From Candidatus Bathyanammoxibius amoris (lineage in GTDB: Bacteria > Planctomycetota > Brocadiia > Brocadiales > Bathyanammoxibiaceae): a stretch of DNA of 64,000 nt. The stretch spans positions 3,872-67,871 of the forward strand of contig JAMXCW010000009.1 in assembly GCA_024451685.1 (NCBI GenBank), in the 5' to 3' direction. Positions 10,671-25,036 of the stretch are shown here, piece after piece (the stretch's first letter is position 1; each line of letters begins with the position of its first letter). Under the pieces are notes generated by a model that saw nothing but the letters and a program-made list of their open reading frames with translations, was not told the DNA's origin and ran no database searches. The translations under genes were made by a program, and so were the position numbers.

Positions 10671-13556
10671 TTATACCCCCGTAATCACGAAGGGTTTTTC
10701 GGTGCTGAGGCCCTGGTCGTCGTAGGCGACTATGCGTACAAGGTTCAGCCCCCTGATTATGGGTATCCGGGCGGTGAAGTCGCGCTCGCTGGTGCGGTTT
10801 TTGTTGTATTCATAAAAAACCTTGGCGTCGTTCACCATGACGTACACACCCCTTACGTCCTGGTCGTCTTCCACGTGGAACTCGATGTCGACGTCGCCGC
10901 TTCTTGTTGTGAGCACGCCTTCCTTTAGCGTTATTATGGGCGGCCTTAAGGGTAGGAACGATACGGGTATGATATCCCTGACCGCTTCATTATGCTCCGG
11001 GGCGTATCTGTAGACCTCACTGACGTCTTGTGCCTTTACCCAGCCCCTGTAGCCGCCGCTTAGCGGCACGCGGTACCAGCCGTCCGCCTGCCCGTCGGCC
11101 TTGATTACACTCTCGGCAAGGAGCGGCGCAAGCACGGGCGATAGGTCTGACCTGCCGCCATATACACGGGCGCCCTTGCCGGATATCTTGAGCGCAGTGT
11201 GATACGGTTTTATGTCGACGTCGATGTGTTTCTTCTCTATGGGGAGCAGGAGCTTGCTGAAGAGGTTGACTCCCAGGTTGATGTCGGCGATGACCACTTC
11301 GAGCCTGAGGTCATCAGGCGGTATCTCGCTAATGGAAATGTCAAACGTTGCGGTCTTTTCGCCATTGGTCCGGAGCATTCCCTGTTTCAGCCTGGGGTTG
11401 TGTATGGTTATTCCATCGGGGTTCAGCGCCTTGAGCATAACGACCGTGTCCCTGGAGTTGCCCTCACCTATGTTTTTGACCGACAGCGCGAGCCTGACGT
11501 TTTCGCCCGCCTCAATAAGACCGTCGCCCGCGCTACCCGTGCCGTCCAGGACCTGAAAGGAATACGCAAAGACGGGAGTGGGCTGTGCCCAGGTAGTAAT
11601 CCACGCCATGAGGTATTCCGGCGTATAGTCGTTGTCCTCGGTGAACTTGACGACCATCTCGTCCCGCCTGTCGAGCGAGTCCTCCGGCACGTTTACCTTC
11701 AGGGTGTAAGATTCGCTCCGGCCCGGGGCTATCTCGCCGATAGGGAATTCGAGGCCGTCAAAGACCGGGTTGGTAGAGGTGCTCCTGCCCAGCACCCTGT
11801 AGAGCGTGCCGTCGCCGCGGTTCTCCACGGTGACGGCGACGTCAATTGTCCCCCCCGCGTCTACCTCGTTAATTTCCTTGTCAAGGTTTATCCTGGCCAC
11901 CGGTGCCGGCACGCCTTCAGGCAGCCCCGATGACCAGTCTATCCCCTGCCCTTTCAGTGCCTGTACTATCTTCTTTTCTTGCTCCTTCTGCGCCCGCCGC
12001 AGGACTCGCTCGCAGACGTTCCACCTCACACCGCCACCGGCCAGGCCCCCCTCCTCTATGAGTCTCACTGCCAGCCGCACCGGATAGTCACGCGCGGGGT
12101 CCGGCCTGCCGGTTGAAACACCCTCATCGAGGTAAACAAGACTGGCAGAGGGCTTTTCCTCACCGGTGGGCCTCTCTATCCTTTCCCGTATGAGCCCCTC
12201 GTTCAGGTAGTGTACACGCCGGGTAAGCGTGGGGTTGTCCCCGTCGACCTTTATCGGTATGAGGAGCACGTTAGGCGCAAGCCCGATGAATTGGATGTAT
12301 CGCCCGCCGGGGGTGTAATATTTGGCCGTCGTCAGCTTGACCGCATACTTTCCCTTCAGGCCGAAGACCTGCTGGATACATGCCTTGCCGAAGGACTGCT
12401 CGCCCATCACGACCGCCCTGTCGTTTTCCTTAAAAGCCGCGGCCAGTATCTCCGCGCCCGACGCGCTGCCCTCGTCGATCAAGACCACCAGAGGATAACC
12501 TTCTTCTCTATTGCCGGAGGGCCGCGCCCTTACAAATTTCGGGTACCCCTTTCCCGAACTTACCTTTATATTCAGGATACCGGATGAAAGCAACAGGTCC
12601 CCTACGCGTATGATTTCATCCAGCACCCCACCGTAGTTCCCACGAAAATCTATAACCAGGCCGTTCAGGTCGGCAGTCTTTTTCAGCCCTTCCAATGCAT
12701 CAAGCGTGGACTTAAACGTACCGTCCTGAAAGTTGCTTATCCTTATGTACCCGACGTCGCCCTCTAACATAACGGACGTGACGTTTTTCACCGTGACACG
12801 CTCCCGTTGCAGAGTGTAACTAGTTACTATGCCGTCTCTTACGATGGAGAGTGTCACTTTCGTACCTTCGGCGCCGGTGAGCCTTTCCAGGGCCTCCCTG
12901 AGGCTCATCTTCCGCGCGGACTCCCCGTCTATCTCGATGATCCTGTCCCCCGGCATCAGCCCCGCGCGGTAGGCGGGAGAGTTTTCATAAACCTCAATAA
13001 TCGCAAGGGCGCCCTCCCTGAACTCGATATCCATCCCCAGCCCTATGAAGCTGCTTGCGCCCAGGCTCTCGGCCCTCTCAAAGTCTTTTGGCTGGTAAAG
13101 CTTGCAATACGGGTCAAATCCTCTCAGTATGCTGCTCAGCGACGCAAACTCCAACTCCCGGAAGGGCACGGTACACTTTCCGCTTGACTCGATAAAGCGC
13201 AGGATATCCTTCAACATGTCCCTGAGGTCCGCCCAATACTCAATGCCGCCAATCCCAAAGACCTCTTCGCTCCCGTCCACCTGGACCCTCACCGCGTGCG
13301 TGTCCACCGAGGCCCTTAAATTGGGAACAACCCTCTCCACCCCCCTCATCGCGTCGCGCAGCACCTCGTGGACCTTCAGGCTGTTAAAATCTATGTAGTA
13401 CCTTCCGATGCAGGAAAAGACCGCGTTAACCATGTGACCCTCCGGTAAACCACTCTGGCCGGGGACGCCGGTTGACGCAACACCCGTTGCGGATGAAAGC
13501 AGCAGAGAGGACAGGAGGGTTATTGTAAGGCAGAACGATCTGATGTAATTCCGCAT
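10671..13556 (-). CDS. S41 family C-terminal processing peptidase with PDZ domain and a long C-terminal extension (SH3b-like and Ig-like modules)
   Basis: PDZ GLMPGDRIIEIDGE, and S41 motifs FRGNYGG, GSASGAEILA and FGKACIQ. The start at ATG 13556 gives a signal peptide MRNYIRSFCLTITLLSSLLLSSA. Confidence 0.85.
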   Translation of the reverse strand: MRNYIRSFCLTITLLSSLLLSSATGVASTGVPGQSGLPEGHMVNAVFSCIGRYYIDFNSLKVHEVLRDAMRGVERVVPNLRASVDTHAVRVQVDGSEEVFGIGGIEYWADLRDMLKDILRFIESSGKCTVPFRELEFASLSSILRGFDPYCKLYQPKDFERAESLGASSFIGLGMDIEFREGALAIIEVYENSPAYRAGLMPGDRIIEIDGESARKMSLREALERLTGAEGTKVTLSIVRDGIVTSYTLQRERVTVKNVTSVMLEGDVGYIRISNFQDGTFKSTLDALEGLKKTADLNGLVIDFRGNYGGVLDEIIRVGDLLLSSGILNIKVSSGKGYPKFVRARPSGNREEGYPLVVLIDEGSASGAEILAAAFKENDRAVVMGEQSFGKACIQQVFGLKGKYAVKLTTAKYYTPGGRYIQFIGLAPNVLLIPIKVDGDNPTLTRRVHYLNEGLIRERIERPTGEEKPSASLVYLDEGVSTGRPDPARDYPVRLAVRLIEEGGLAGGGVRWNVCERVLRRAQKEQEKKIVQALKGQGIDWSSGLPEGVPAPVARINLDKEINEVDAGGTIDVAVTVENRGDGTLYRVLGRSTSTNPVFDGLEFPIGEIAPGRSESYTLKVNVPEDSLDRRDEMVVKFTEDNDYTPEYLMAWITTWAQPTPVFAYSFQVLDGTGSAGDGLIEAGENVRLALSVKNIGEGNSRDTVVMLKALNPDGITIHNPRLKQGMLRTNGEKTATFDISISEIPPDDLRLEVVIADINLGVNLFSKLLLPIEKKHIDVDIKPYHTALKISGKGARVYGGRSDLSPVLAPLLAESVIKADGQADGWYRVPLSGGYRGWVKAQDVSEVYRYAPEHNEAVRDIIPVSFLPLRPPIITLKEGVLTTRSGDVDIEFHVEDDQDVRGVYVMVNDAKVFYEYNKNRTSERDFTARIPIIRGLNLVRIVAYDDQGLSTEKPFVITGV

Positions 13557-13583: not shown

Positions 13584-14399
13584 TTGCCTTGCGATGTGCC
13601 TGGTGATAGAATTTGTCTCGTGATACTCGATGAAATCTACAAACACAAACTCCTTGAACTTTCCCGGTGCAAGGAGCGACGTCCCCTGGAACAACTTGAG
13701 GCGGCCCTCCCTAACATGGCCGGCACCAAGGACTTAGAGGGCGCGTTGAAGACGTCCAGCGGTCTCGGGCTGATAGCCGAGGTGAAGGCGGCCTCGCCGT
13801 CAAAGGGCATTCTGCGTCACGATATGAATCCCTCGCAAATCGCTTTAGAGTACCAAGAAGGTGGCGCCACCGCAATATCTGTTCTTACTGACGAAAAATT
13901 CTTTCACGGAAGACTTGCTCACCTCGAAGACGTTAGAAGGGTGGTAAGGCTGCCCCTTCTTCGCAAGGACTTTATCATAGACGAGTACCAGCTCGTTGAG
14001 GCCAGGACGAGCGGCGCGGATGCCGTACTCCTTATTGCGGCTATTCTCGATGAGAAAAAACTGGAGGCGCTTCTGAGCAGTGCCGGCCGGTTGGGCCTCA
14101 ATTGCCTGGTGGAGGTGCATACGGAGGGAGAGCTTAAAAAAGTGCTCGATACGCCGGCGACATTAGTAGGGATAAACAACAGGGACCTCCATACGTTCAA
14201 GACCGACCTCGAGACCACCATCAGACTCAGGCCGCTTGTTCCTGAGGACAGGACGGTCGTCAGCGAAAGCGGTATCAAATCGAGGGGTGATGTAAGGCGT
14301 TTAGAAGACGCAGGGGTAGACGCAATACTCGTGGGAGAGGCCCTGGTACAGTCAGAAGATATTGAGAGAGATATAAGGGAGCTTATGGGATGGGACTGA
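13584..14399 (+). CDS. trpC: Indole-3-glycerol phosphate synthase
   Basis: LIAEVKAASPSKG, ISVLTDEKFFHG, LRKDFIIDEYQ and NNRDL motifs. The start is uncertain (TTG 13584 or GTG 13620). Confidence 0.9.
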   Translation: MPCDVPGDRICLVILDEIYKHKLLELSRCKERRPLEQLEAALPNMAGTKDLEGALKTSSGLGLIAEVKAASPSKGILRHDMNPSQIALEYQEGGATAISVLTDEKFFHGRLAHLEDVRRVVRLPLLRKDFIIDEYQLVEARTSGADAVLLIAAILDEKKLEALLSSAGRLGLNCLVEVHTEGELKKVLDTPATLVGINNRDLHTFKTDLETTIRLRPLVPEDRTVVSESGIKSRGDVRRLEDAGVDAILVGEALVQSEDIERDIRELMGWD

Positions 14400-14406
14400 A
14401 ACGCGG

Positions 14407-14727
14407 CTATTCCTTGTAACTAGGCCCTACGAAGAGCTTACAAAGGCATATCCCGTCATTTTCCAGCTCGTTCTTAGAATAGATACAGGGGCAGACAATC
14501 TTGGAATCCTCTTTGGGATTACCGCTGAGTACCCTGCAGGGGCAGTATTCACCACCCGCTTTTATTTTTCTTATGGCGATACCGCGGATTATCGTGTTGG
14601 CAACATCGGTCTCGGGATTAAACAGGTAGGGAGTGGTCTCCAACCATTTTTCCAATCTCCCCCTTACCTCACGTTCAACTTGTTCGAGTGTTTTTCCATT
14701 TTCTGTGCTGGTTATCATTTTTTCCAC
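14407..14727 (-). CDS. Ferredoxin:thioredoxin reductase catalytic-subunit-like protein
   Basis: CPC...CPC...CLC-KLF cysteine pattern, like the FTR beta subunit, but with CLC where plant/cyanobacterial FTR has CHC. Confidence 0.6.
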   Translation of the reverse strand: MEKMITSTENGKTLEQVEREVRGRLEKWLETTPYLFNPETDVANTIIRGIAIRKIKAGGEYCPCRVLSGNPKEDSKIVCPCIYSKNELENDGICLCKLFVGPSYKE

Positions 14728-14903
14728 TGTTGGTTGCGCCCCCCCCTAGGTTTGGTTAAGAAATACAAGTTTAGCATAAACCCACATCTTTTCAAGTCAA
14801 AAAGTTCAGGCCTCGCAGAATCAACATGTAGCAGGTATATCATAAAAGACCACAACATATTGAATGACAAACATTTATTTATATAAACATTGATGTTTCT
14901 TTG

Positions 14904-14931
14904 TTGACGTTTAGCGGACTTTTGCTATAAT
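14904..14931 (+). promoter_or_regulatory. Sigma-70-type promoter for parB
   Basis: TTGACG (14904-14909), 16-nt spacer, TGcTATAAT extended -10 (14923-14931). It lies in an AT-rich spacer. Confidence 0.55.
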
Positions 14932-14956
14932 CCCTCCATTCGAGGGGCGGCTCAGA

Positions 14957-15835
14957 TTGATGCCGGAGGTAAAAGAGATTATGTTGGACAGGGGAAAACT
15001 AGGCAGGAGCCTAGACTCGCTCCTCGGAAATATTGCTGAGGTAGAACCAACCGATAGTATCCTGCAGATTAGTCCGGAAAGCATTCAACCCAATCCTCAT
15101 CAGCCGCGAAGGGAATTTTCACCACAGGCCATAGGCTCGCTTGTAGAATCTATACGAGAACATGGCATGCTCCAGCCGATACTGGTCCGGCCAGCCAAGG
15201 ACGGTTACCAGCTCCTGGCGGGAGAGAGGAGGTGGCGCGCCGCAAAGGAACTCGGGTTGGGCAGTATACCCGCCATTGTGAAGGAGGCCACGTCAAAGCA
15301 ATCCCTGGGGATTGCATTAGTAGAGAACCTGCAGCGTGAGGACCTGAACCCCATAGAGAGGGCCAAGGCCTTCTGGGAGCTTATGGAGGTCTTCGGGCTT
15401 ACACAGGAGCAGGTTGGAAAGTATGTCGGCATGGACCGCTCTTCTGTTGCTAACACCCTGCGGCTGTTAGAATTGTCGATAGAAATCCAGGAGCATGTTT
15501 CACGTGGAACAATCTCACAAGGGCATGCCAGGGCATTGCTCGCGGCCAAGGGTGAATCGCTTCAGCAGAGATTGTGTCAGAGGGTAATTGACGAGGGGCT
15601 TACGGTAAGACAGACGGAGGCCCTGGCCGCCAGCGTAAGTAAAAATGCCCGGCGGAAGCGGCAAAATGGCAGAAATGGCAACAACCATAATGCCCGTGAA
15701 CATGAAGACAGATTGAGCATGGCCCTGGGGACAAAGGTTCAGATACGCCACAGCGGCAGTAAAGGTAAGGTGGTCATCCACTTCAACGGAAATCCCCAGT
15801 TTGAAGACCTTATGAGCCGGCTCTGTGGGGGATAG
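14957..15835 (+). CDS. parB: Chromosome partitioning protein ParB/Spo0J
   Basis: IQPNPHQPRREF, LAGERRWRAAKELG arginine patch, HTH region and a C-terminal dimerisation segment. Alternative ATG starts at 14960 and 14981. Confidence 0.9.
   Translation: MMPEVKEIMLDRGKLGRSLDSLLGNIAEVEPTDSILQISPESIQPNPHQPRREFSPQAIGSLVESIREHGMLQPILVRPAKDGYQLLAGERRWRAAKELGLGSIPAIVKEATSKQSLGIALVENLQREDLNPIERAKAFWELMEVFGLTQEQVGKYVGMDRSSVANTLRLLELSIEIQEHVSRGTISQGHARALLAAKGESLQQRLCQRVIDEGLTVRQTEALAASVSKNARRKRQNGRNGNNHNAREHEDRLSMALGTKVQIRHSGSKGKVVIHFNGNPQFEDLMSRLCGG
15496..15511. promoter_or_regulatory. parS centromere-like site inside parB
   Basis: TGTTTCACGTGGAACA matches the consensus TGTTTCACGTGAAACA at 15/16 positions. 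Confidence 0.75.
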
Positions 15836-16090
15836 ATAGAAGCGTCCCACCCTGTTTAAGGATGAGTGTCGTTTACCGGGCGGGTGTCACACCGTAACTT
15901 CTTTGACAGGCAGTGGTTATAGACAATACCAATCTGGTGGCCTTGCGTTACCTGGGCGCTTTGCCACCAGACGGCCTTCCCTGCGCCCGTCGTAACAGAT
16001 CTATCCCGATGGCCGGTTTCTCGTTCTCGTCTTAGTCTTAAGCGGTGAGTGCGCTAGATGAAGCGGGGTCAAAAATGATCACGACGCGTT

Positions 16091-16783
16091 TTATACATCA
16101 CCCTTGCATACAGGACAAACAGAAATGCATATACCGCAGAGGGAGTCCTCTATCCCCAAACTAATACCAAATTCCAGGGCCTTCTTCCTGCACGTGTAGA
16201 CGTCCAGCAACTCCTCACGCGGCATGCCGACACGCCACTCCCTGTCCCTTATGGCGTTGACCGGGCAGGCTTTCACGCACTCCACGCAACTATTGCAGTT
16301 GCCAACACTTACAGCAATTCCCGTCTCAAGTGGCATGTCCGTCAGCACGGTCCCTAACCGCACCCCGGGGCCATATGTCGAGGACACAAACAGGGACGAC
16401 TTGCCTATCCATCCGAGTCCCGCAAGCGTGGCGGCCGTCTTATGTGGGAATTTTCCGTCAAACCATTTAAGATACTTTTTGCGTCCCGTGTCCTCGATGG
16501 TAGCTTGCACTATTTGAGCCCTGTAACCTGCGGACCTTATCATGACCTCCACGCCGTGCCCTATCCGGTTCAGGAGGGCGTTCTTCTCCCTGTACTGGAG
16601 ATAGTAGGCCCAGTTCGGCCCGTTATGTATGGACTCTATTACCTCAAGCGGCAGGCTGCAGGCTATGGATATGGCGTAGGGGAAACCCATGGTCCCCGGG
16701 AGGTCGAGGCCCCGGAGTCTTGCAAAACCGACCAGTGATGCCCCCTGTTCGTATATGTATTGTCTTATAGTATGCTGAACCAT
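16091..16783 (-). CDS. 4Fe-4S double-cluster protein, epoxyqueuosine-reductase (QueG)/reductive-dehalogenase-related
   Basis: CNSCVECVKACP and CGICISVCP motifs, with a QueG-like N-terminal half. Confidence 0.55.
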   Translation of the reverse strand: MVQHTIRQYIYEQGASLVGFARLRGLDLPGTMGFPYAISIACSLPLEVIESIHNGPNWAYYLQYREKNALLNRIGHGVEVMIRSAGYRAQIVQATIEDTGRKKYLKWFDGKFPHKTAATLAGLGWIGKSSLFVSSTYGPGVRLGTVLTDMPLETGIAVSVGNCNSCVECVKACPVNAIRDREWRVGMPREELLDVYTCRKKALEFGISLGIEDSLCGICISVCPVCKGDV

Positions 16784-16828
16784 CGCGTACAGAGTTTGTT
16801 TTCGCGCGTACGAAAGACTCTAGTAGGT

Positions 16829-16910
16829 GTCGTTCTGAGGGAACGAAGTGACCGAAGAATCTGACAATGCGTGTCAGATTCTTCTCCCCCTCAGGCGGGC
16901 CACAATGACA
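16829..16910. repeat. Palindromic doublet, divergent variant of family B (GTCRTTSTGAGG...GAAGAATCTGACA and its inverse)
   Basis: Arms 16829-16866 and 16872-16910 are inverted complements around the loop ATGCG. Confidence 0.7.
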
Positions 16911-16960
16911 CACGTGAGTAACACATCAAGTCTCGCAATACTTTCTTGTAAAGCGCTGCT

Positions 16961-18583
16961 TCATTTCATCAATGATTGAATGCGGGGGCGGAAATCCTTT
17001 GCCAGGCGGCCCAGCGTGGGCGAGATATCGTCTTCGTCGATTATGGCGTCTATCAGATAGAAGTCTTTGCTGTTGGTTGCCGTGCGGAGTGCTTTTGTAA
17101 AGTCTGTTGAGGTAGAGACTTGCGTGCCGTTTCCCCCAAGGCTCCTGGCCAGACCCACGTAGTCCCATGGGTGGACGTGGAGATAATCCCTCTCCTTGTC
17201 CAGCACCTTAAGTGTAGCAAAGCTGCTGTTGTCAAACACAATGACGATAGGGTTGAGGCCCATCTTCTTTGCGGTTGAAAGTTCAACCCCCGTCATCTGG
17301 AAACACCCGTCGCCCACCAGCACAACGGGTCTCCGGGAGGGCAGGGCCAGTTGGGCGCCTATTGCGCCGGGTGTGGCGAAGCCCATGCTCGCGTAGTATG
17401 CGGGTCCGATAAAGATGTCCGTCTTCAATTCAACAGAGGCAAACAACGGGTCGCCAACGTCGCTAATTACCAGGTGTTTGTTCGTTAGAAAATTGTTCAG
17501 CTCATCGATGATAGTTGCTACAGTGAGCTTCTTTGCTGCACGTGCCTTCTTCTTTCTGACGGTCTCTTTCCTCGGGGGTTTAAACGAGCGCCTTTTTAGT
17601 GTCTTTGTCTTTAACAGGCCCTTCATCACGTCTTGAAGGTTTACGTCCTTGTAGCAGTGGTGGCTCACACATACCTGCTCCGAGGTCGCCTGTATTATGT
17701 GTGGTGTGTAGGAGGCGAATACATCCGCCACGCCGAAGTCTATGGGTAACGAGCCGAGTGAGAGTATGCAGTCAGACCCCTCAACATAGTCCCTTACGTG
17801 TTTTGGGCTGAGCTTGCCGATATAATTGCCGATGAAATTCGGGTGACTCTCGGGTAGTACGGATTTGCCCAGAAGGGTTGTGGCCACGGGCATGTTCAGT
17901 TTTTCTGCCAGCCTCGCCAGGTCTTTCATCAGACCAAAGCGTTCAATCTCGACGCCTGCGTATATGACCGGACGGCGACTGGTGTTGAGTCTGTTGATTA
18001 TCTCCCCAAGGGCCTCTTTCAGTACCGGGTCCTTGTTGCCGGTCTTCTCGCGTTTAGTGACGCACCTGGGCGGCGCATCGACATTGACCATATCCCTGGG
18101 TATCTCAATGTAGCCCGGACGGGAGAGTTTTTTTGTGGTATCTATTACCCTGTCTATCTCAGAAATAGCGCTTAGTTCGTCGTTCAGGACGGCCGTGGAT
18201 GCCGTAACCTCTTGGTATATCTTGTGTTGTGACTCGTAGCGCTTTACCCTGTGATGGAAGAGCGCGTCCGGATCTCTACCGGCTATCTCAGGGGCGCCGG
18301 TCAGCACGATGACGGGAGATTTTTCCGCGTAGGCGAGGGCGATGGGGTTGACCATGCTTAACGCGCCGACACCCTGGGTGACGATTGCCACTCCCAGTCC
18401 TTTGAGGCGTGCATAGACGTCGGCGGCATAACCGGCGGAGGGTTCGTTCGTCATCACCACCGTCTTCATCCCGCACCTCTCCTGAGCCGCATAAAGGGGC
18501 AGGATGAAGTCGCCGGGGATGCCGAAGGTGTACTCCACCCCCTCCTCCTTCAGCCTCTTGAATATGTAGTCCGCGATGCGCAC
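16961..18583 (-). CDS. Thiamine-diphosphate-dependent 2-keto-acid decarboxylase family protein (indolepyruvate/pyruvate decarboxylase-like)
   Basis: GTG start, N-terminus MRIADYIFKRLKEEGVEYTFGIPGDF, and TPP motif GDGCFQM...NSSF. Confidence 0.8.
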   Translation of the reverse strand: MRIADYIFKRLKEEGVEYTFGIPGDFILPLYAAQERCGMKTVVMTNEPSAGYAADVYARLKGLGVAIVTQGVGALSMVNPIALAYAEKSPVIVLTGAPEIAGRDPDALFHHRVKRYESQHKIYQEVTASTAVLNDELSAISEIDRVIDTTKKLSRPGYIEIPRDMVNVDAPPRCVTKREKTGNKDPVLKEALGEIINRLNTSRRPVIYAGVEIERFGLMKDLARLAEKLNMPVATTLLGKSVLPESHPNFIGNYIGKLSPKHVRDYVEGSDCILSLGSLPIDFGVADVFASYTPHIIQATSEQVCVSHHCYKDVNLQDVMKGLLKTKTLKRRSFKPPRKETVRKKKARAAKKLTVATIIDELNNFLTNKHLVISDVGDPLFASVELKTDIFIGPAYYASMGFATPGAIGAQLALPSRRPVVLVGDGCFQMTGVELSTAKKMGLNPIVIVFDNSSFATLKVLDKERDYLHVHPWDYVGLARSLGGNGTQVSTSTDFTKALRTATNSKDFYLIDAIIDEDDISPTLGRLAKDFRPRIQSLMK

Positions 18584-18707
18584 GTTGTGGTCTCCCCAAT
18601 CTTAAGCTCTATATATTATCATTGCCGTGCATATGGTGTCAAACCGGTAAAAAATATTAAAGGCGTCTTATTTTTTTCTGCAAAGGGCAAACAAAAAATA
18701 CAGGTCG

Positions 18708-18736
18708 TTGATTCCGGTTGACAAAAGTATTATATT
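18708..18736 (+). promoter_or_regulatory. Possible sigma-70 promoter of the hydrogenase operon
   Basis: TTGATT (18708-18713), 17-nt spacer, TATATT (18731-18736). Confidence 0.3.
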
Positions 18737-18793
18737 GTGTGTGACGTTCCGTGACCCGATGCGGGGCCGTACACGAAAACCGGGGAGGTACGA

Positions 18794-19894
18794 ATGGAGA
18801 AATCCATATACGAAGAGTTCCTGGAAAGGGGTCTCACCCGCCGCGACTTCCTGGGTTTCTGCGCCGCGATGGTTGGAACGCTGGCCCTCCCCTGGGATGC
18901 GGTGGCGAAGGTCGAGAAGGCCCTGAAATCCTCCAGACGGCTTCCTCTCATATGGCTTGAGCTGCAAAGCTGCACGGCCGATACCGAGTCTTTCCTGCGC
19001 GCGAGCAATCCTTCCGCGTCTCAACTTATCCTCGACGTCCTTGCGATAAACTATTCAGAGACCCTTATGGCCGCGGCGGGCCATCAGGCTGAAGAGGTAT
19101 TGTGGAAGACGGTTGAAGAGGAAAAGGGAAAGTATGTCGCGGTCATAGAGGGTTCCATACCGACCGCGGACGGCGGTGTCTACTGTACCATCGGCGGGGA
19201 GACGGCCCTTGAGAGGACCAAAAGGGTTTGTAAAGATGCCGCGGCGGTTGTGAACGTCGGAACGTGCGCATGTTTTGGCGGTCTTCCCAGTGCAAGGCCC
19301 GACCCTACGGGGGCGAAGAGTGTCGAAGAGGCCATCCCCGGCGTTCGGAACCTGATTAACCTGCCGGCCTGTCCGGTAAACGTGGTAAACGTCTCGGCCA
19401 CACTTGTCCACCTGTTGACGTTCGGCGGCATTCCGTCAAAGGACCGGTTACATCGGCCGCTGTTCGCCTACGGCAGGAGGATACATGATTCTTGTGAGCG
19501 GCGCGGTTCCTACGACGCGGGGTATTTTGTGGAGAAGTGGGGCGACGAGGGTCACAGGAGGGGCGGGTGTCTGTATAAGATGGGGTGCAAGGGCCCTGCG
19601 ACCTTCCATAACTGCCCCAAAGTACGCTGGAACGGCGGCACGAGCTGGCCGGTCGGCAGCGGACATCCTTGTATTGGTTGCGCCGAGCCGAATTTCTGGG
19701 ACAGCATGTCGCCTTTTTATGAACACCTGCCGACTGTACCCGGTTTCGGCGTGGCGACCTCGGTGGACAAGGTCGGCGCGGGGCTGGTAGCGGCGACTGC
19801 CGCCCTGTTCCTGCTCCATGGCGCGGGGAGCTGGGTCAGGGATAGAATCATACGAAAACAGGAAGAGAAGGAAGAAAAAGAAGGCCAAGAATAG
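18794..19894 (+). CDS. [NiFe] hydrogenase small subunit (group 1, Tat-exported, C-terminal membrane anchor)
   Basis: Twin-arginine signal TRRDFLGF, Fe-S cysteine ligands (CTADTES, GTCACFGG, CPVN, HDSCERRG, CLYKMGCKGP, HPCIGC) and a C-terminal TM helix. Confidence 0.9.
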   Translation: MEKSIYEEFLERGLTRRDFLGFCAAMVGTLALPWDAVAKVEKALKSSRRLPLIWLELQSCTADTESFLRASNPSASQLILDVLAINYSETLMAAAGHQAEEVLWKTVEEEKGKYVAVIEGSIPTADGGVYCTIGGETALERTKRVCKDAAAVVNVGTCACFGGLPSARPDPTGAKSVEEAIPGVRNLINLPACPVNVVNVSATLVHLLTFGGIPSKDRLHRPLFAYGRRIHDSCERRGSYDAGYFVEKWGDEGHRRGGCLYKMGCKGPATFHNCPKVRWNGGTSWPVGSGHPCIGCAEPNFWDSMSPFYEHLPTVPGFGVATSVDKVGAGLVAATAALFLLHGAGSWVRDRIIRKQEEKEEKEGQE

Positions 19895-19934
19895 GAGGAA
19901 GTCTCTGTTTAAAATTTAATAAAGAAGAAGAGAT

Positions 19935-20678
19935 ATGGAAAAGACACACGCTCCCGAAGAAATCATACAAAAGACGCGTGCCCGTTTTACGCGCATCGCC
20001 AAAGACCCGTCTTCTGAAAAGAGGTTCCCCGTCGGCCTGGAGAGCGCAAAACACCTCGGGTATGATGCGGACGAAATAGATTCAATGCCGGATTCTGTAA
20101 CCGAGTCCTTTGCGGGTGTTGGTTGCCCAATTGCCCTTGGCCCGATAAACGAGGGAGAGACGGTGCTTGACCTTGGCTGCGGTGCAGGACTTGACAGCCT
20201 TCTTGCGGCACGCAGGGTGGGCCCGGAGGGGCGTGTCATAGGGATTGATATGACACCCGATATGGTGCGCAAGGCAAGTGAAAACGGCCAGAAGCTTGGG
20301 GTAGAGAACGTAGAATTTCGGCAAGGTTCGGCGGAGCAACTGTCTCTGGGAAATACCTCAGTCGATATCGTCCTTTCAAATGGTGTTATAAATCTCTGTC
20401 CCGATAAAGGACGTGTCGTTTCGGAAATTTATCGTGTCCTTCGCCCCGGAGGGCGTCTCTACGTGGCAGACATTACCCTTGAGGATGGGGTAGACCAGGC
20501 CACGGTAGAAAAACTCGGCACATGGTCCGACTGAATATGCGGTGCGATACCAGGAAGGTCGTTCCTGGAACTACTGAAGCAGGCGGGATTCGTCGATGCC
20601 CGGATGATTGGTAAGACGGTCTACCGCACCTCACGTTATACGGTAGGGGCCACGTTCATGGCCGGAAAACCGGAGTAG
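19935..20678 (+). CDS. ArsM/UbiE-type SAM-dependent methyltransferase, probable selenoprotein (TGA 20532-20534 read as Sec)
   Basis: SAM motif VLDLGCGAGLD, then SNGVINLCPDK and LRPGGRLYVADI. The ORF stops at ...GTWSD-TGA, but the same frame continues ICGAIPGRSFLELLKQAGF...MAGKPE to TAG 20676-20678, which completes the family-typical C-terminus. Confidence 0.65.
20550..20568 (+). other. Candidate bacterial SECIS hairpin
   Basis: CCAGGAA-GGUCG-UUCCUGG starts 15 nt after the UGA. The loop contains GGUC, as in the E. coli fdhF SECIS (recalled from memory). Confidence 0.5.
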
Positions 20679-20737
20679 CGGAGCACGTCATGACACGGCG
20701 TTTTAATAAAAGAAGTTAAACCCGAGGAGGAAGAAAA

Positions 20738-22447
20738 ATCACAAGAGTAGTCGTAGACCCGGTAACCAGGATTGAAGGCCATCTGCGGATAGAGGTGGAG
20801 GTAGACCCGGAGAAACACCTTGTCACAGACGCCTTCTCGTGTGCCACTATGTTCCGCGGCATAGAGATAATCCTTAAGGGCAGGGATCCCAGAGACGCGT
20901 GGCTCTTTGCGCAGAGGATATGCGGCGTCTGCACCGTGGTCCACGCCATGGCGTCAATACGCGCGGTGGAGAATGCCCTGGATATCCGTATCCCTCCCAC
21001 CGCCCGTCTCATAAGAAATATAATTACGGCCACACAGTTTGTCCACGACCATACGATCCACTTCTACCACCTGCATGCCCTGGACTGGGTGGACATTACC
21101 TCTGCGCTCAAGGCCGACCCCGCCGGGACCGCCACACTCGCAGAGTCTATCTCAGACTGGAGCCCGTCCGGAACGGCCTACTTCAGGGGTGTGCGGGACA
21201 GGCTCAAGAAGTTTGTGGGGAGCGGGCAGATGGGGCCGTTCTCGAACGCCTACTGGGGACATCCCGCGTACAAGCTACCCCCGGAGGCAAACCTGCTTGC
21301 CGTGGCCCATTATCTTGAGGCCCTGGAATGGCAGAAAGATTTTGTAAGGATACACGCGATCCTGGGCGGTAAGAACCCGCACCTCCAGTCGCTCATCGTG
21401 GGCGGCGTATCTGTCCCCGTTGACCCGAATAGCGAGGACGCCCTGAATGCCGGCACCATCGCTACCATAAGAGACCTGGCCGTGAAGGCCCGGGATTTTG
21501 TGGAAAAGGTCTACCTGCCCGACTTGCTGGCGATTGCCTCGTTCTATAAGGAGTGGGGGGTGATAGGAAGGGGTGTCGGGAACTATCTATCGTACGGCGA
21601 ATTCCCCATGAGCGACAACCCGCGGGACGTGTATATACCCGCCGGGATAATTCTTGAAGAAAATCTGGGTAAGGTACACACGGTTGACCAGGAAAAGATA
21701 GCTGAATACGTGACCCGTTCATGGTTTGAGTACTCCGGGGGCGACAAAGAGGGCAGGCACCCGTTCAAGGGGGAGACGAAGCCGCGGTATACCGGGCCAA
21801 AACCTCCTTACAAAGAGATTGGCACGGACGGCGAGTACAGCTGGTTAAAGGCCCCGCGGTATGAAGGGAGGGTGATGGAGGTAGGACCGCTTGCCAGGAT
21901 GCTGGTTGCCTACGCCTCAGGCCATGAAAGGGTAAAGGGGCTCGTAGACGGCGCGCTCAAGACCCTGGACGTCCCGGCCGAGGCCCTGTTCTCTACGCTG
22001 GGCAGGACGCTTGCGCGGGGCGTGGAAACGGTGGTTCTGGCCGAGAAGATAATTGACTGGACGGATGAACTGGCCGTGAACATGGGCAGGGGCGAAATTC
22101 AGATACACGCCGGTGAGCGGTGGGACCCGTCGGAATGGCCTGCCGAAGCGATGGGTTACGGTCTCCACGAGGCCCCCCGCGGCGCGCTGGGACACTGGAT
22201 ACACATAAAGGACAGAAGCATCCACAACTACCAGTGTGTGGTCCCAAGCACCTGGAACCTGGGGCCGAGAGATGACAGGGGACAGATAGGCCCCGTGGAA
22301 AAGGCCCTTATTGGTACACCGGTGGCGGACCCGGCACAACCCCTGGAGATATTGAGGACCGTGCATTCTTTTGACCCCTGCATGGCATGCGGTGTTCACC
22401 TCTACGACACCCGGGGAAAGGAATTGAATTTCGTAAAGGTGGGATAG
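20738..22447 (+). CDS. [NiFe] hydrogenase large subunit (group 1); start probably the non-canonical ATC at 20738
   Basis: RICGVCTVVH N-terminal Ni-binding motif and C-terminal DPCMACGVH plus a 15-aa cleavable tail. The conserved ITRVVVDPVTRIEGHLRIE is encoded upstream of the first GTG (20795) with no ATG/GTG/TTG in frame. GAGGAGG lies 7 nt before the ATC. Confidence 0.85.
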   Translation: MTRVVVDPVTRIEGHLRIEVEVDPEKHLVTDAFSCATMFRGIEIILKGRDPRDAWLFAQRICGVCTVVHAMASIRAVENALDIRIPPTARLIRNIITATQFVHDHTIHFYHLHALDWVDITSALKADPAGTATLAESISDWSPSGTAYFRGVRDRLKKFVGSGQMGPFSNAYWGHPAYKLPPEANLLAVAHYLEALEWQKDFVRIHAILGGKNPHLQSLIVGGVSVPVDPNSEDALNAGTIATIRDLAVKARDFVEKVYLPDLLAIASFYKEWGVIGRGVGNYLSYGEFPMSDNPRDVYIPAGIILEENLGKVHTVDQEKIAEYVTRSWFEYSGGDKEGRHPFKGETKPRYTGPKPPYKEIGTDGEYSWLKAPRYEGRVMEVGPLARMLVAYASGHERVKGLVDGALKTLDVPAEALFSTLGRTLARGVETVVLAEKIIDWTDELAVNMGRGEIQIHAGERWDPSEWPAEAMGYGLHEAPRGALGHWIHIKDRSIHNYQCVVPSTWNLGPRDDRGQIGPVEKALIGTPVADPAQPLEILRTVHSFDPCMACGVHLYDTRGKELNFVKVG

Positions 22448-22448
22448 T

Positions 22449-23105
22449 ATGGGCCCGAAGGTCGAGAAAAGGGTGGCGACGTATGTATGGGAACCGGTGG
22501 TAAGGTGGGCCCACTGGTTGATTGTCGTATGTATACTTGTGCTCGCCGCGACCGGGTATCTTATAGGAAACCCCGTGCTGCTCACCGGAAGTGGCGCGCT
22601 CATCATGAGCCACGTCAAGTTCATACACGTTGTTACCGCGCTGGTGTTTTCGACCGCCGTTTTTGTCCGGATTCTCTGGCTCTTCGTGGGGAACGAGTAC
22701 GCGAGCTGGAGGGGCCTGATACCCGTAGACGCCGAGAGGCGGAAGAACGCCCTGGAGACGCTGAAGTGGTACTTTTTCCTCAAGATGAGGAGCCCCGGCT
22801 CTATCGGCCACAACGCCCTTGCCGGCATGGCGTATGCGGCGATTTTTTTGCTGTGTCTTGTAGAGATATACACGGGCCACGTCCTTTACGAGATGCACGG
22901 GAGCGGCGGTGTCGGCTGGGCGGTGGCGGTCTTTGGCGCCCAGGAGATTAGATTCGTCCATCATTTCCTGACGTGGGTATTTTTGATGTTCCTCGTCCAC
23001 CACGTCTATTCCGTGTTTCTGTGCGCCATGAGCGAGAGAGACGGGCTTGTAGAGGCCATGTTCGACGGTTACAAGTTTATTGAGGAAGAGAAGCTTCCGA
23101 GATAA
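22449..23105 (+). CDS. Ni/Fe-hydrogenase b-type cytochrome subunit
   Basis: 4 TM helices with conserved His residues and a WEPVVRWAHWL N-terminus. It starts 2 nt after the large-subunit stop. Confidence 0.85.
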   Translation: MGPKVEKRVATYVWEPVVRWAHWLIVVCILVLAATGYLIGNPVLLTGSGALIMSHVKFIHVVTALVFSTAVFVRILWLFVGNEYASWRGLIPVDAERRKNALETLKWYFFLKMRSPGSIGHNALAGMAYAAIFLLCLVEIYTGHVLYEMHGSGGVGWAVAVFGAQEIRFVHHFLTWVFLMFLVHHVYSVFLCAMSERDGLVEAMFDGYKFIEEEKLPR

Positions 23106-23150
23106 TCAAGGGGCATACGCCGGAGGCGCACAGGCCCGACCGCAAGTATC

Positions 23151-23426
23151 CTACCTGAACAAGCCGATGACGAGGTTTATGAGGACCCAGAATAACCCGT
23201 TGGCGCCGCACACCATGCCGGCGTAGGCGAGGTAATGGCCTCTGAGCGGATACGCGCGAGTTGCCCTCATCCCAAGATAGCCGGTAATTATCGCGCCGAC
23301 CGCAAGGAGTATCTGAATCACCATGATGGCGACGTGTACCATCAGGAAGAAGAGGATGAGGGACAGCACGCCCATAGCGAGGGAGATAATGGCAAAGATT
23401 GACCATCCCGGTTTGTAGTACTCCAT
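23151..23426 (-). CDS. Small integral membrane protein (DUF4190-like)
   Basis: 91 aa with 3 hydrophobic helices. No catalytic motif. Confidence 0.45.
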   Translation of the reverse strand: MEYYKPGWSIFAIISLAMGVLSLILFFLMVHVAIMVIQILLAVGAIITGYLGMRATRAYPLRGHYLAYAGMVCGANGLFWVLINLVIGLFR

Positions 23427-23653
23427 GGTTTATGGCTCCACCGTAGAGGGTAGTAGGAAAATCTGCACGAATCTTACAACGCCCCACCGGCGAAATCAAA
23501 CATTATTCATGAATACATTACCTCGCTCAGAATGACGTCGATTAACCAAACAGGTAGGTCATAGCCTCACCATGGCCGCACATTAATTTATCTGTCTCCT
23601 ATATTCATCATTGTCAAGACGTGGCCTTAACCTACCCCTCTGTCATTCTGTGT

Positions 23654-23706
23654 GTAGCGTGGCAGCTTGCTGCCACGTTCAACGTTGGAGCAAGCTCCAA
23701 CGCTAC
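23654..23706. repeat. Palindromic doublet, family D (GTAGCGTGGCAGCTTGCTGCCACG / CGTTGGAGCAAGCTCCAACGCTAC)
   Basis: Two internal hairpins enclosed by a GTAGCG...CGCTAC outer stem. It is preceded by a family-B-like GTCATTCTG fragment. Confidence 0.7.
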
Positions 23707-23712
23707 ATCAAA

Positions 23713-23740
23713 TCAACGACTGTAAAGGTCGTTGTCTACC
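23713..23740. repeat. Solo family A unit
   Basis: TCAACGACTGTAAAGGTCGTTGTCTACC. Confidence 0.75.
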
Positions 23741-23854
23741 GGGAACGTTTTTTGAAGATGTAGGGATAATTCATGTTACGCTAGAGAGGGGATTAGCTTT
23801 AGCGACAACGTCCTCAACAGTATTTTGTTTTTTGTGGCGGTTTTCGTGCAGCTA

Positions 23855-24592
23855 TCAGGGAGCAAGGAGCAGTTTTGTGTCGCTATCGTCGAAGACGCAG
23901 CTGTGGCCCGTTACGTCGGTTTCTTCTTTGTACCTGCCGTAGGCAGTTACCTGCCCCACGGGCACGCCGAACGTCTGGAACCAGGGTATCCAGGAGGGTT
24001 TCTCCGGGCCGGCGCCCGTTATCACCGGGCCCAGGTTGTGGAGGTTTATGCCCTTCAGGGCCTGCCATACCACCCAGTGGCCCATGCTGTGGCCTACTAT
24101 CTTAATACTCTCCTCGTACCGGCAGTTTTCCTTACTTAATTCCGCCTTTGTGCGCTCGATAAGGTCGTCACGCGCAATGATGTGTTTTCTCAGTATCCCC
24201 GCGACCCGTCGTACGTCCGCGCCGAAGAGGGTGGTGTAGTGAAGGAAGTTGCCCCACGTGAAGCCGGGACAGTTATGGTTCAGGAAGAACACGTCCTCGT
24301 CCTTCTCTTCTTTAGTGGTCTCGACGTGGAAGAGGCGTGTCGGGCTGTCCGGGGTTGAGGCCCTCTTGGTCTCCTCCGTGCAGGTTATCCGGATGCCGCC
24401 CAGTTGTCTCTGTTTCTTCTTATTCAGTAATATCTCATAGAGGGCGAAGATGGTGAATATACCGGGAGGGCAGCCCGACTGCCGTTCTATTTCCGCCGCC
24501 CGCCGGGCGTCGAAGTCGCAGATATCCTCTTCATGAGGGGTGTCGGAATCGGTCAGGTCTAGCCTCAGTCCAGGTACTATATAGATGGCCAT
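23855..24592 (-). CDS. Hypothetical protein with a lipase-like GxSxG nucleophile elbow
   Basis: A VGHSMGHWVV motif in the C-terminal third. Otherwise no family is recognised. Confidence 0.4.
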   Translation of the reverse strand: MAIYIVPGLRLDLTDSDTPHEEDICDFDARRAAEIERQSGCPPGIFTIFALYEILLNKKKQRQLGGIRITCTEETKRASTPDSPTRLFHVETTKEEKDEDVFFLNHNCPGFTWGNFLHYTTLFGADVRRVAGILRKHIIARDDLIERTKAELSKENCRYEESIKIVGHSMGHWVVWQALKGINLHNLGPVITGAGPEKPSWIPWFQTFGVPVGQVTAYGRYKEETDVTGHSCVFDDSDTKLLLAP

Positions 24593-25036
24593 TTTTCTTC
24601 TCGATTACCTCTAATTCTTTTTTCCCTTCCTTGACGTGGGCCTCGCCGGGGATGGGGCGGTGCCGTCCCGCTTGAAACCGGTATTTTATATGATAGAATG
24701 GCTGTAGTCAAAAATGATTATGGGTTTCTAACAGGGAAGGGATTTTTGGAGTTGCGGATTTTCCAAAAGATATTGACTGAGACTGTCTTCATCCCTTTTG
24801 ACCTTTCCGTACGGTTCCCGTCCGCGTTGCCGCCGTTTTCCTTCCAGGGTTTCACCTGAATGCCCGTCTGAACCCCCTGGTCCGGGGGAATCTCGCCGGG
24901 GCATTTTCATGCCCGACCTCTGATATTAAAACCTCTGCAAAGTCCAATATTTTGGAGTTCTTTTCCAGAAGCGGGTCTCCGCCTGAGGCGGACGGGACTC
25001 CATAAGAGGATACTTTTTCAGGGGTCTCGCGTCAGG

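Follow-up and report, generated by a model that had tools for sequence, protein, structure and literature searches.

The 64-kb window analysed here, a stretch of contig JAMXCW010000009.1 (positions 3,872 to 67,871) of the planctomycete Candidatus Bathyanammoxibius amoris, order Brocadiales, contains on its forward strand a gene that is predicted to encode an ArsM-like methyltransferase dependent on S-adenosylmethionine (SAM) and that is very probably a selenoprotein gene. All coordinates given below are positions in this window, and the read-through product was analysed with cysteine substituted for the UGA. The gene starts with an ATG at 19935, and its open reading frame (ORF) of 199 codons closes with ...VEKLGTWSD-TGA, the TGA being located at 20532-20534. 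Past this TGA the frame stays open for 47 sense codons, ICGAIPGRSFLELLKQAGFVDARMIGKTVYRTSRYTVGATFMAGKPE (ICGAIPGRSF...MAGKPE), up to a TAG at 20676-20678, which is followed by four further in-frame codons and then by another stop. The read-through product comprises 247 residues, i.e., 246 sense codons and one UGA that is proposed to specify selenocysteine (Sec). An earlier note, made from the DNA letters, had described the end of the ORF and the 47-codon extension to the TAG with coordinates that were all correct, and its expectation that gene callers would truncate the gene agrees with the databases, which store the 199-residue product (P0001). The features of the locus and of the adjacent genes are collected in Table 1.

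Table 1. Features of the methyltransferase locus and the genes that flank it
Feature	Position	Strand	Basis
Full read-through coding sequence, predicted ArsM-like SAM methyltransferase selenoprotein	19935..20678	+	Translation, Pfam, NCBIfam, alignment to solved ArsM
ORF as called by ordinary gene callers, 199 codons, cut at the UGA	19935..20534	+	ORF list, database entry P0001
In-frame UGA, proposed Sec200 codon, motif W-S-D-U-I-C-G-A (UxxG)	20532..20534	+	Aligns with CmArsM Cys224
47-codon C-terminal extension after the UGA: last helix and final two beta-strands of the fold	20535..20675	+	Ratio of non-synonymous to synonymous substitution rates (dN/dS), AlphaFold model of P0013
Hairpin resembling a Sec insertion sequence (SECIS), 7-bp stem CCAGGAA/UUCCUGG, apical loop GGUCG	20550..20568	+	Fold, comparison with relatives
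[NiFe] hydrogenase small-subunit gene (hydS), ends 40 nt upstream of the methyltransferase start	18794..19894	+	TIGR00391 hydA, 417 bits
[NiFe] hydrogenase large-subunit gene (hydL), starts 59 nt past the methyltransferase TAG	20738..22447	+	NF007778/NF007550, 600-614 bits
Hydrogenase b-type cytochrome subunit gene	22449..23105	+	TIGR02125, 138 bits, above cut-off

Comparison with homologs revealed that the TGA occupies the position of a conserved cysteine. In a gap-free alignment to CmArsM (chains 4fr0 and 4kw7) the UGA falls on Cys224, Gly150 on Cys174 and Val62 on Cys72, and the PDB entries named 'C224A' and 'C72A' confirm Cys224 and Cys72 as functional cysteines of ArsM. At the nucleotide level, 163 homologous loci, drawn from collections of genomes and metagenomes, were aligned with the window at the Sec codon, and among the resulting 164 loci this codon is TGC or TGT in 121, TGA in 39 and TGG in 3, with one locus misaligned. 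A further 14 loci that were reached via truncated orthologs carry TGA without exception (14/14), which brings the related loci with TGA at the aligned codon to 53, originating from several phyla; the TGA is retained in the Brocadiales orthologs at 62-97% identity. The earlier note had placed the TGA at the conserved cysteine of ArsM, and this was corroborated both by the alignment of the 247-residue product to ArsM homologs and by the codon counts, while the W-x-G-C-I-A-G-A motif that it quoted is indeed encountered in Cys homologs, such as those reading LWTGCIAGAL or AWAGCIAGAL. The same position is visible in the lengths of database proteins: a protein search yielded 7,046 homologs, and nearly all of the best 120, for which length and coverage were examined, have 195-202 residues and cover 77-81% of the read-through query, implying that they end at the same point, with only four covering at least 97%.

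The region past the UGA is conserved as a coding sequence. An in-frame tail of 46-50 codons follows the TGA in all ortholog loci whose contig reaches far enough, and its first 45 codons are indel-free across 11 representative relatives. Among Brocadiales-type orthologs the dN/dS of the 45 codons past the UGA amounts to 0.04-0.17, and the substitutions are mostly found at third codon positions (e.g., 3/2/23 over the three positions in comparison with L168), which argues that the region after the UGA is translated in this frame. Structural information was derived from the AlphaFold model of P0013, a full-length homolog that is 63% identical to the window protein (predicted local distance difference test score (pLDDT) 90.7). 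In this model the tail consists of a helix (205-215) and two strands (218-231 and 234-242), with pLDDT values of 89-96. As these elements amount to the last helix and the final pair of beta-strands in the fold, the 199-residue product would be an incomplete domain. The earlier note had taken the tail for the usual C-terminal segment of such methyltransferases, and in the model it is an integral part of the fold.

The hairpin at 20550-20568 starts 15 nt past the UGA, its loop begins 22 nt past the UGA, and its predicted folding energy is -9.5 kcal/mol when folded alone; its 7-bp stem, position and GGUCG loop were found exactly as previously described. As a single sequence the hairpin is weak evidence, because hairpins of at least 7 bp that start 6-29 nt downstream are found at 12-13% of the positions in the window, and likewise of its UGA triplets, and because the 75-nt segment folds no better than its shuffles (z = -0.48). 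As this z-score is not significant, single-sequence thermodynamics were dropped and comparative tests were used. A perfect stem of at least 5 bp that starts 6-30 nt past the UGA is present in all distinct TGA forms (34/34), and in 27/34 it reaches at least 7 bp, whereas among the 108 distinct Cys forms such a stem is missing from 53 and attains 7 bp or more in 9. The corresponding difference in stem length between TGA and Cys forms (Mann-Whitney p = 3e-15) is to be taken as indicative only, as the sequences are related. Three clades carry three hairpin types that are unrelated in sequence, yet are positioned at a similar distance from the UGA and have loops that all contain G.

Among the 12 distinct sequences of the window clade, 95% of the stem is paired and the only changes are from A-U to G-U; analogous hairpins are present in all other TGA forms. 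Four-fold degenerate sites in the stem are occupied exclusively by pairing-compatible bases (Pro CCR, Gly GGR and Leu CUG), whereas three or four bases are in use at comparable sites outside the stem. In the sister clade, which includes Chloroflexota, Actinomycetes, Dormibacteraeota and Gemmatimonadota, the stem is 96% paired, three of its pairs display compensatory changes, and the covariation score was reached by none of the shuffles (0/500). Judged by the features of the Escherichia coli fdhF SECIS and the bSECISearch criteria, the window hairpin is consistent with a bacterial SECIS, both in its distance from the UGA and in having a G in its loop. Like the fdhF element, it is a stem-loop within the coding sequence directly 3' of the UGA with a G/U-containing apical loop (GGUCG in the window, a GGUC tetraloop in the relative L175), and the loop is located at about 20-25 nt from the UGA. 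Compared to fdhF, the window element has a shorter stem (7 bp), no identified bulged U and a loop about 4 nt farther from the UGA.

The read-through product matches the Pfam class I methyltransferase domains Methyltransf_31 (E = 2e-35), Methyltransf_25 and Methyltransf_11. Its best NCBIfam matches are three selenoprotein models with an ArsM domain, i.e., NF041537 (268 bits), NF041536 (257 bits) and NF047649 (239 bits), in which the matches cover the methyltransferase domain (profile positions about 12-250 of 345, 459 and 283, respectively) and remain far below the curated cut-offs of 510, 575 and 460 bits. These models describe double or triple fusion selenoproteins (ArsM/AhpD, ArsM/DUF2284 and methyltransferase/UXPK-star, respectively) that have Sec at the same UxxG site as the window protein but carry a second Sec module (AhpD CxxU, DUF2284 or a UXPK C-terminus), whereas the window protein has one Sec and no AhpD, DUF2284 or UXPK tail. 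Among solved structures, the best phmmer matches are the ArsM proteins of Chlamydomonas and Cyanidioschyzon and human AS3MT (E 4e-32 to 4e-23), including CrArsM (5evj) with E = 3.6e-32, and the alignment to solved ArsM spans residues 50-226. Moreover, ArsM/AS3MT structures were the top Foldseek matches of the P0013 model (E about 1e-15 to 1e-18, template modelling (TM) score 0.6-0.7).

With ArsM/AS3MT (CmArsM 4fr0/4fs8/6cx6, CrArsM 5evj and human AS3MT 8xt7) the window protein shares the fold and the GxGxG SAM site, and it keeps the Cys224 position, as Sec200. The differences concern its size (247 versus 320-390 residues), the lack of the ArsM C-terminal domain, and the replacement of Cys72 and Cys174 by Val and Gly. 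On the basis of these comparisons, the gene product is predicted to be a single-domain ArsM-like SAM-dependent methyltransferase, ArsM-like rather than a canonical ArsM. The designation 'ArsM-type' in the earlier note consequently held for fold and homology, and did not hold for the other two catalytic cysteines, which are displaced from their canonical positions.

This displacement bears on the substrate and makes arsenite methylation a putative activity: Val62 is found in the GCG motif in place of Cys72, and Gly150 (SNG for SNC) in place of Cys174, and of the three catalytic or As-binding cysteines of ArsM a single one is retained, as a UGA codon. An enzyme that is a selenoprotein without being an arsenite methyltransferase, and that acts on selenium or tellurium species, on a thiol or selenol, or on mercury, or operates through a selenol methyl relay, is a real possibility that deserves serious consideration, although it is not the preferred one. 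It gains weight from the alignment of 42 distinct Sec-type read-through products (L004-L175), in which Sec200 alone forms a conserved Cys/Sec column and all Cys columns stay at or below 55%; two of the orthologs, L167 (a metagenome-assembled genome of Candidatus Tripitaka californicus) and L172, contain no cysteine at all. Gly occupies the Cys174 position in 35/39 TGA forms, the ArsM C-terminal domain is missing, and the arsenite methyltransferase model PRK11873 (NF008823), which ranks next after the three selenoprotein models, scores 225.6 bits against a cut-off of 263. All of these observations weigh against arsenite as the substrate. On the other side, ArsM/AS3MT are still the best matches by sequence and by structure, and the Sec forms have been filed as arsenite methyltransferase in the literature (PMC13188914, PMC5029168). 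Furthermore, Cys64, Cys155 and Cys202, which are 2, 5 and 2 residues off the canonical ArsM cysteine sites, are conserved within the window's own clade (pattern VCGC*C), which makes a multi-ligand metalloid site possible there and could rebuild the As(III) site. Arsenite is therefore kept as the default substrate, at a confidence that ranges from tentative to slightly better than even, with a different substrate as the main rival and selenium or tellurium species as the alternatives.

A small separate clade (L150, L160, L162 and L163) combines TGA at the Cys224 position with the canonical ArsM cysteines in the GCG-motif region and at the Cys174 equivalent, and has a hairpin of its own (GUUCC / CGUGGA / GGAAC). 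This clade, which differs from the Gly150 clade to which the window belongs, is probably the classical Sec-ArsM described in the literature.

Several observations weigh against decoding of the UGA as Sec. With respect to the hairpin, the stem overlaps the conserved peptide PGRSFLE, so that coding constraint accounts for part of its conservation, no double compensatory change was found in the stem within the window's own clade, and an Rfam scan of 19000-22000 (E up to 10) returned chance-level matches only and no SECIS family. With respect to the decoding machinery, neither the 64-kb window, in which ARAGORN detected no tRNA at all, nor the 19 related loci that were scanned contain selA, selB, selD or tRNA-Sec. 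The one survey that was found, of Planctomycetes, reported the full Sec machinery for four genomes, and Kuenenia, which was part of the genome set, is not among them (PMC4807772). In addition, the literature searched gave no report that anammox bacteria or Brocadiales use Sec. Finally, in three relatives, L001 (1569), L002 (1459) and L003 (691), the Sec codon is replaced by TGG (Trp) and the hairpin is kept, which means that the hairpin alone is no proof of current Sec decoding; L001 and L002 have also lost the equivalents of Cys64 and Cys202 (Asn and Ser).

These TGG relatives, together with the lack of Sec genes in the window and the scanned loci, the absence of Kuenenia from the genomes with a full Sec set, and two database proteins that have Gly at the site (P0029 and P0068, which may reflect either GGA or TGA translated by table 25), are the facts from which one might argue that the UGA is read through as a standard amino acid by a near-cognate tRNA-Trp or another suppressor, the hairpin merely slowing termination. 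Such a scenario is very unlikely in view of the prevalence of Cys at the site (121/164 loci), which is the catalytic As-binding Cys in solved ArsM and thus constitutes a classic Cys/Sec signature, and in view of the closest curated hidden Markov models, which are selenoprotein models with Sec at the UxxG site. The distance and the G-containing loop of the hairpin point in the same direction, as they fit a bacterial SECIS. TGG and GGA are one base away from TGA, as expected for the rescue of a Sec gene in a lineage that has lost Sec decoding, and the TGG relatives look like recent rescues of this kind that arose via a single A-to-G transition, whereby the hairpin can outlive Sec decoding. That the TGA is a genuine stop, leaving a 199-residue methyltransferase fragment or pseudogene and 47 untranslated downstream codons, is how gene callers and public databases annotate the gene and could draw on the lack of Sec genes in the window and the scanned loci, but this is scarcely credible when the TGA recurs at the aligned codon in loci from several phyla, the downstream frame is open under low dN/dS, the tail lacks a separate start codon and contributes a final helix and two strands to the fold, and a pseudogene would not hold such a pattern at 62-97% protein identity.

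Elsewhere in the window UGA functions as an ordinary stop, as exemplified by the gene of a thiamine pyrophosphate (TPP) enzyme at 16961-18583, which ends in TGA and is full length in comparison with L178. An alternative genetic code was ruled out, because other well-conserved window genes also end in UGA. When every in-frame TGA junction was scanned, the window yielded no further credible selenoprotein candidate.

Taken together, the alignment with Cys224, the alternation of Cys and TGA at the site, the conservation of the TGA and of the tail, the purifying selection and the TGA-specific hairpin are five independent lines that support the reading of the UGA at 20532-20534 as Sec200, and the window gene is very probably a functional selenoprotein gene. 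In the mechanism that we infer for Sec insertion, SelB binding and substrate, the UGA would not be read as a stop during translation; instead, the hairpin with its G-rich apical loop would act as a bacterial SECIS that recruits SelB-GTP-Sec-tRNA(Sec), Sec would be inserted at residue 200, and translation would go on to the TAG at 20676. In a cell lacking selenium or SelB, translation would stop at the UGA with release of the 199-residue product, which would lack the last helix and the final two Rossmann-type strands and would probably be inactive. The selenolate of Sec200, at the As(III)-ligating Cys224 position of ArsM, would bind a soft metalloid or activate it so that it can accept the methyl group of SAM, and in the window clade Cys202, Cys155 and Cys64 may assist.

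The methyltransferase gene is embedded in a [NiFe] hydrogenase operon, between hydS and hydL (Table 1). No promoter-like or credible terminator-like site was found in the 40- and 59-nt gaps that flank it, and it is probably co-transcribed with both hydrogenase genes. In hydL, neither ATG nor GTG nor TTG precedes the essential N-terminal RIEGH motif. An in-frame ATC is located at 20738, 8 nt after GAGGAGG, and the NCBIfam models align from residue 3 of the product that starts at this ATC. The same combination of a Shine-Dalgarno sequence and ATC is present in the syntenic relative L178 (11316-11345), and L179 has ATG at the equivalent codon (3695); the ATC at 20738 thus looks like a conserved non-canonical start of hydL.

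The order of hydS and the methyltransferase gene is the same on the contig of the 97% identical ortholog (L177). In L178, of which hydS and hydL are 86-87% identical to those of the window (86% for hydS), no methyltransferase gene is located between them (11114-11341), and the insert is also absent from a second relative, in which hydS overlaps hydL. In the window, the insert is flanked by an imperfect direct repeat of 26 nt (73%) that includes the Shine-Dalgarno region (19876-19901 and 20708-20733). Moreover, methyltransferase orthologs at 62-81% identity reside in unrelated gene neighbourhoods. Because of these unrelated neighbourhoods and of L178 without the insert, the placement in the hydrogenase operon is a recent, lineage-specific insertion, and a conserved functional link to the hydrogenase was rejected on the same grounds.

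The 228-nt hydS-hydL spacer of L178 (11114-11341) contains two GC-rich hairpins, one of which has a T-run and is terminator-like, which suggests that the hydS-hydL junction is prone to insertions in this lineage. Directly after its cytochrome b gene, L178 carries hycI-hypA-hypF-hypC-hypD-hypE (13696-19241). None of these six maturation genes was found anywhere in the 64-kb window, where two minus-strand ORFs without an NCBIfam match (23077-23499 and 23855-24592) are located instead in the region 23100-25000. In the ortholog neighbourhoods, a YHS-domain gene is positioned directly upstream in L170 (5601-5957), and DUF1573 and CMD/AhpD-like genes are present in L175 (2557-3795 and 12086-12427). 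Other members of the YHS, DUF1573 and CMD/AhpD-like families are known as selenoproteins; no in-frame TGA was found in the YHS gene of L170 or in the CMD and DUF1573 genes of L175.

Sec-containing arsenite methyltransferase with a UxxG motif is listed among the experimentally verified prokaryotic selenoproteins (PMC13188914, PMC9312934). As cited in these two papers, the family traces back to Fomenko et al. 2007 (Science); in a 2016 survey it was encountered in 39 organisms (Peng 2016; PMC5029168), and the models NF041537, NF041536 and NF047649 originate from Haft & Tolstoy 2025, as cited in PMC13188914. The statement in the earlier note that Sec-containing arsenite or UbiE-like methyltransferases had already been reported is in line with this literature and with the NCBIfam models. 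With the known family the window protein has in common that it is an ArsM-homologous SAM methyltransferase with a single UxxG Sec at a conserved Cys position, that a SECIS-type hairpin lies directly downstream, and that Cys homologs are in the majority. It differs from that family by the displacement of the other canonical cysteines (V62/C64 and G150/C155), by its Brocadiales host and by the position of the gene within a hydrogenase operon.

The window gene is an unannotated new member of a known selenoprotein family. As Sec-containing ArsM homologs are an established family, the finding extends the known picture rather than changing it, and what is new is modest: the host belongs to Brocadiales, the remaining ArsM cysteines have been lost, and the gene is a lineage-specific insertion in a [NiFe] hydrogenase operon. 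The gene implies Sec decoding by this Brocadiales lineage, of which the literature searched contains no report, and, if the Sec reading is correct, it would give the order its first evidence of Sec decoding within the material examined here. An unlikely combination of proposals would go further, in that the Gly150 Sec subfamily would form a distinct enzyme class in which a lone selenolate replaces the three-thiol site and serves another substrate or a Se-methyl relay, with UGA decoding modulating hydL expression. If true, selenium-dependent decoding of the UGA could modulate the downstream, ATC-started large subunit within a co-transcribed [NiFe] uptake-hydrogenase operon. A Sec-type subfamily that retains one ArsM catalytic thiol also raises the question of what is methylated. 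Finally, the databases list the window gene and most of its best 120 relatives in truncated form, with about 197-199 residues, which biases the functions predicted and the selenoproteins counted in Brocadiales, Chloroflexota, Actinomycetota and other lineages.

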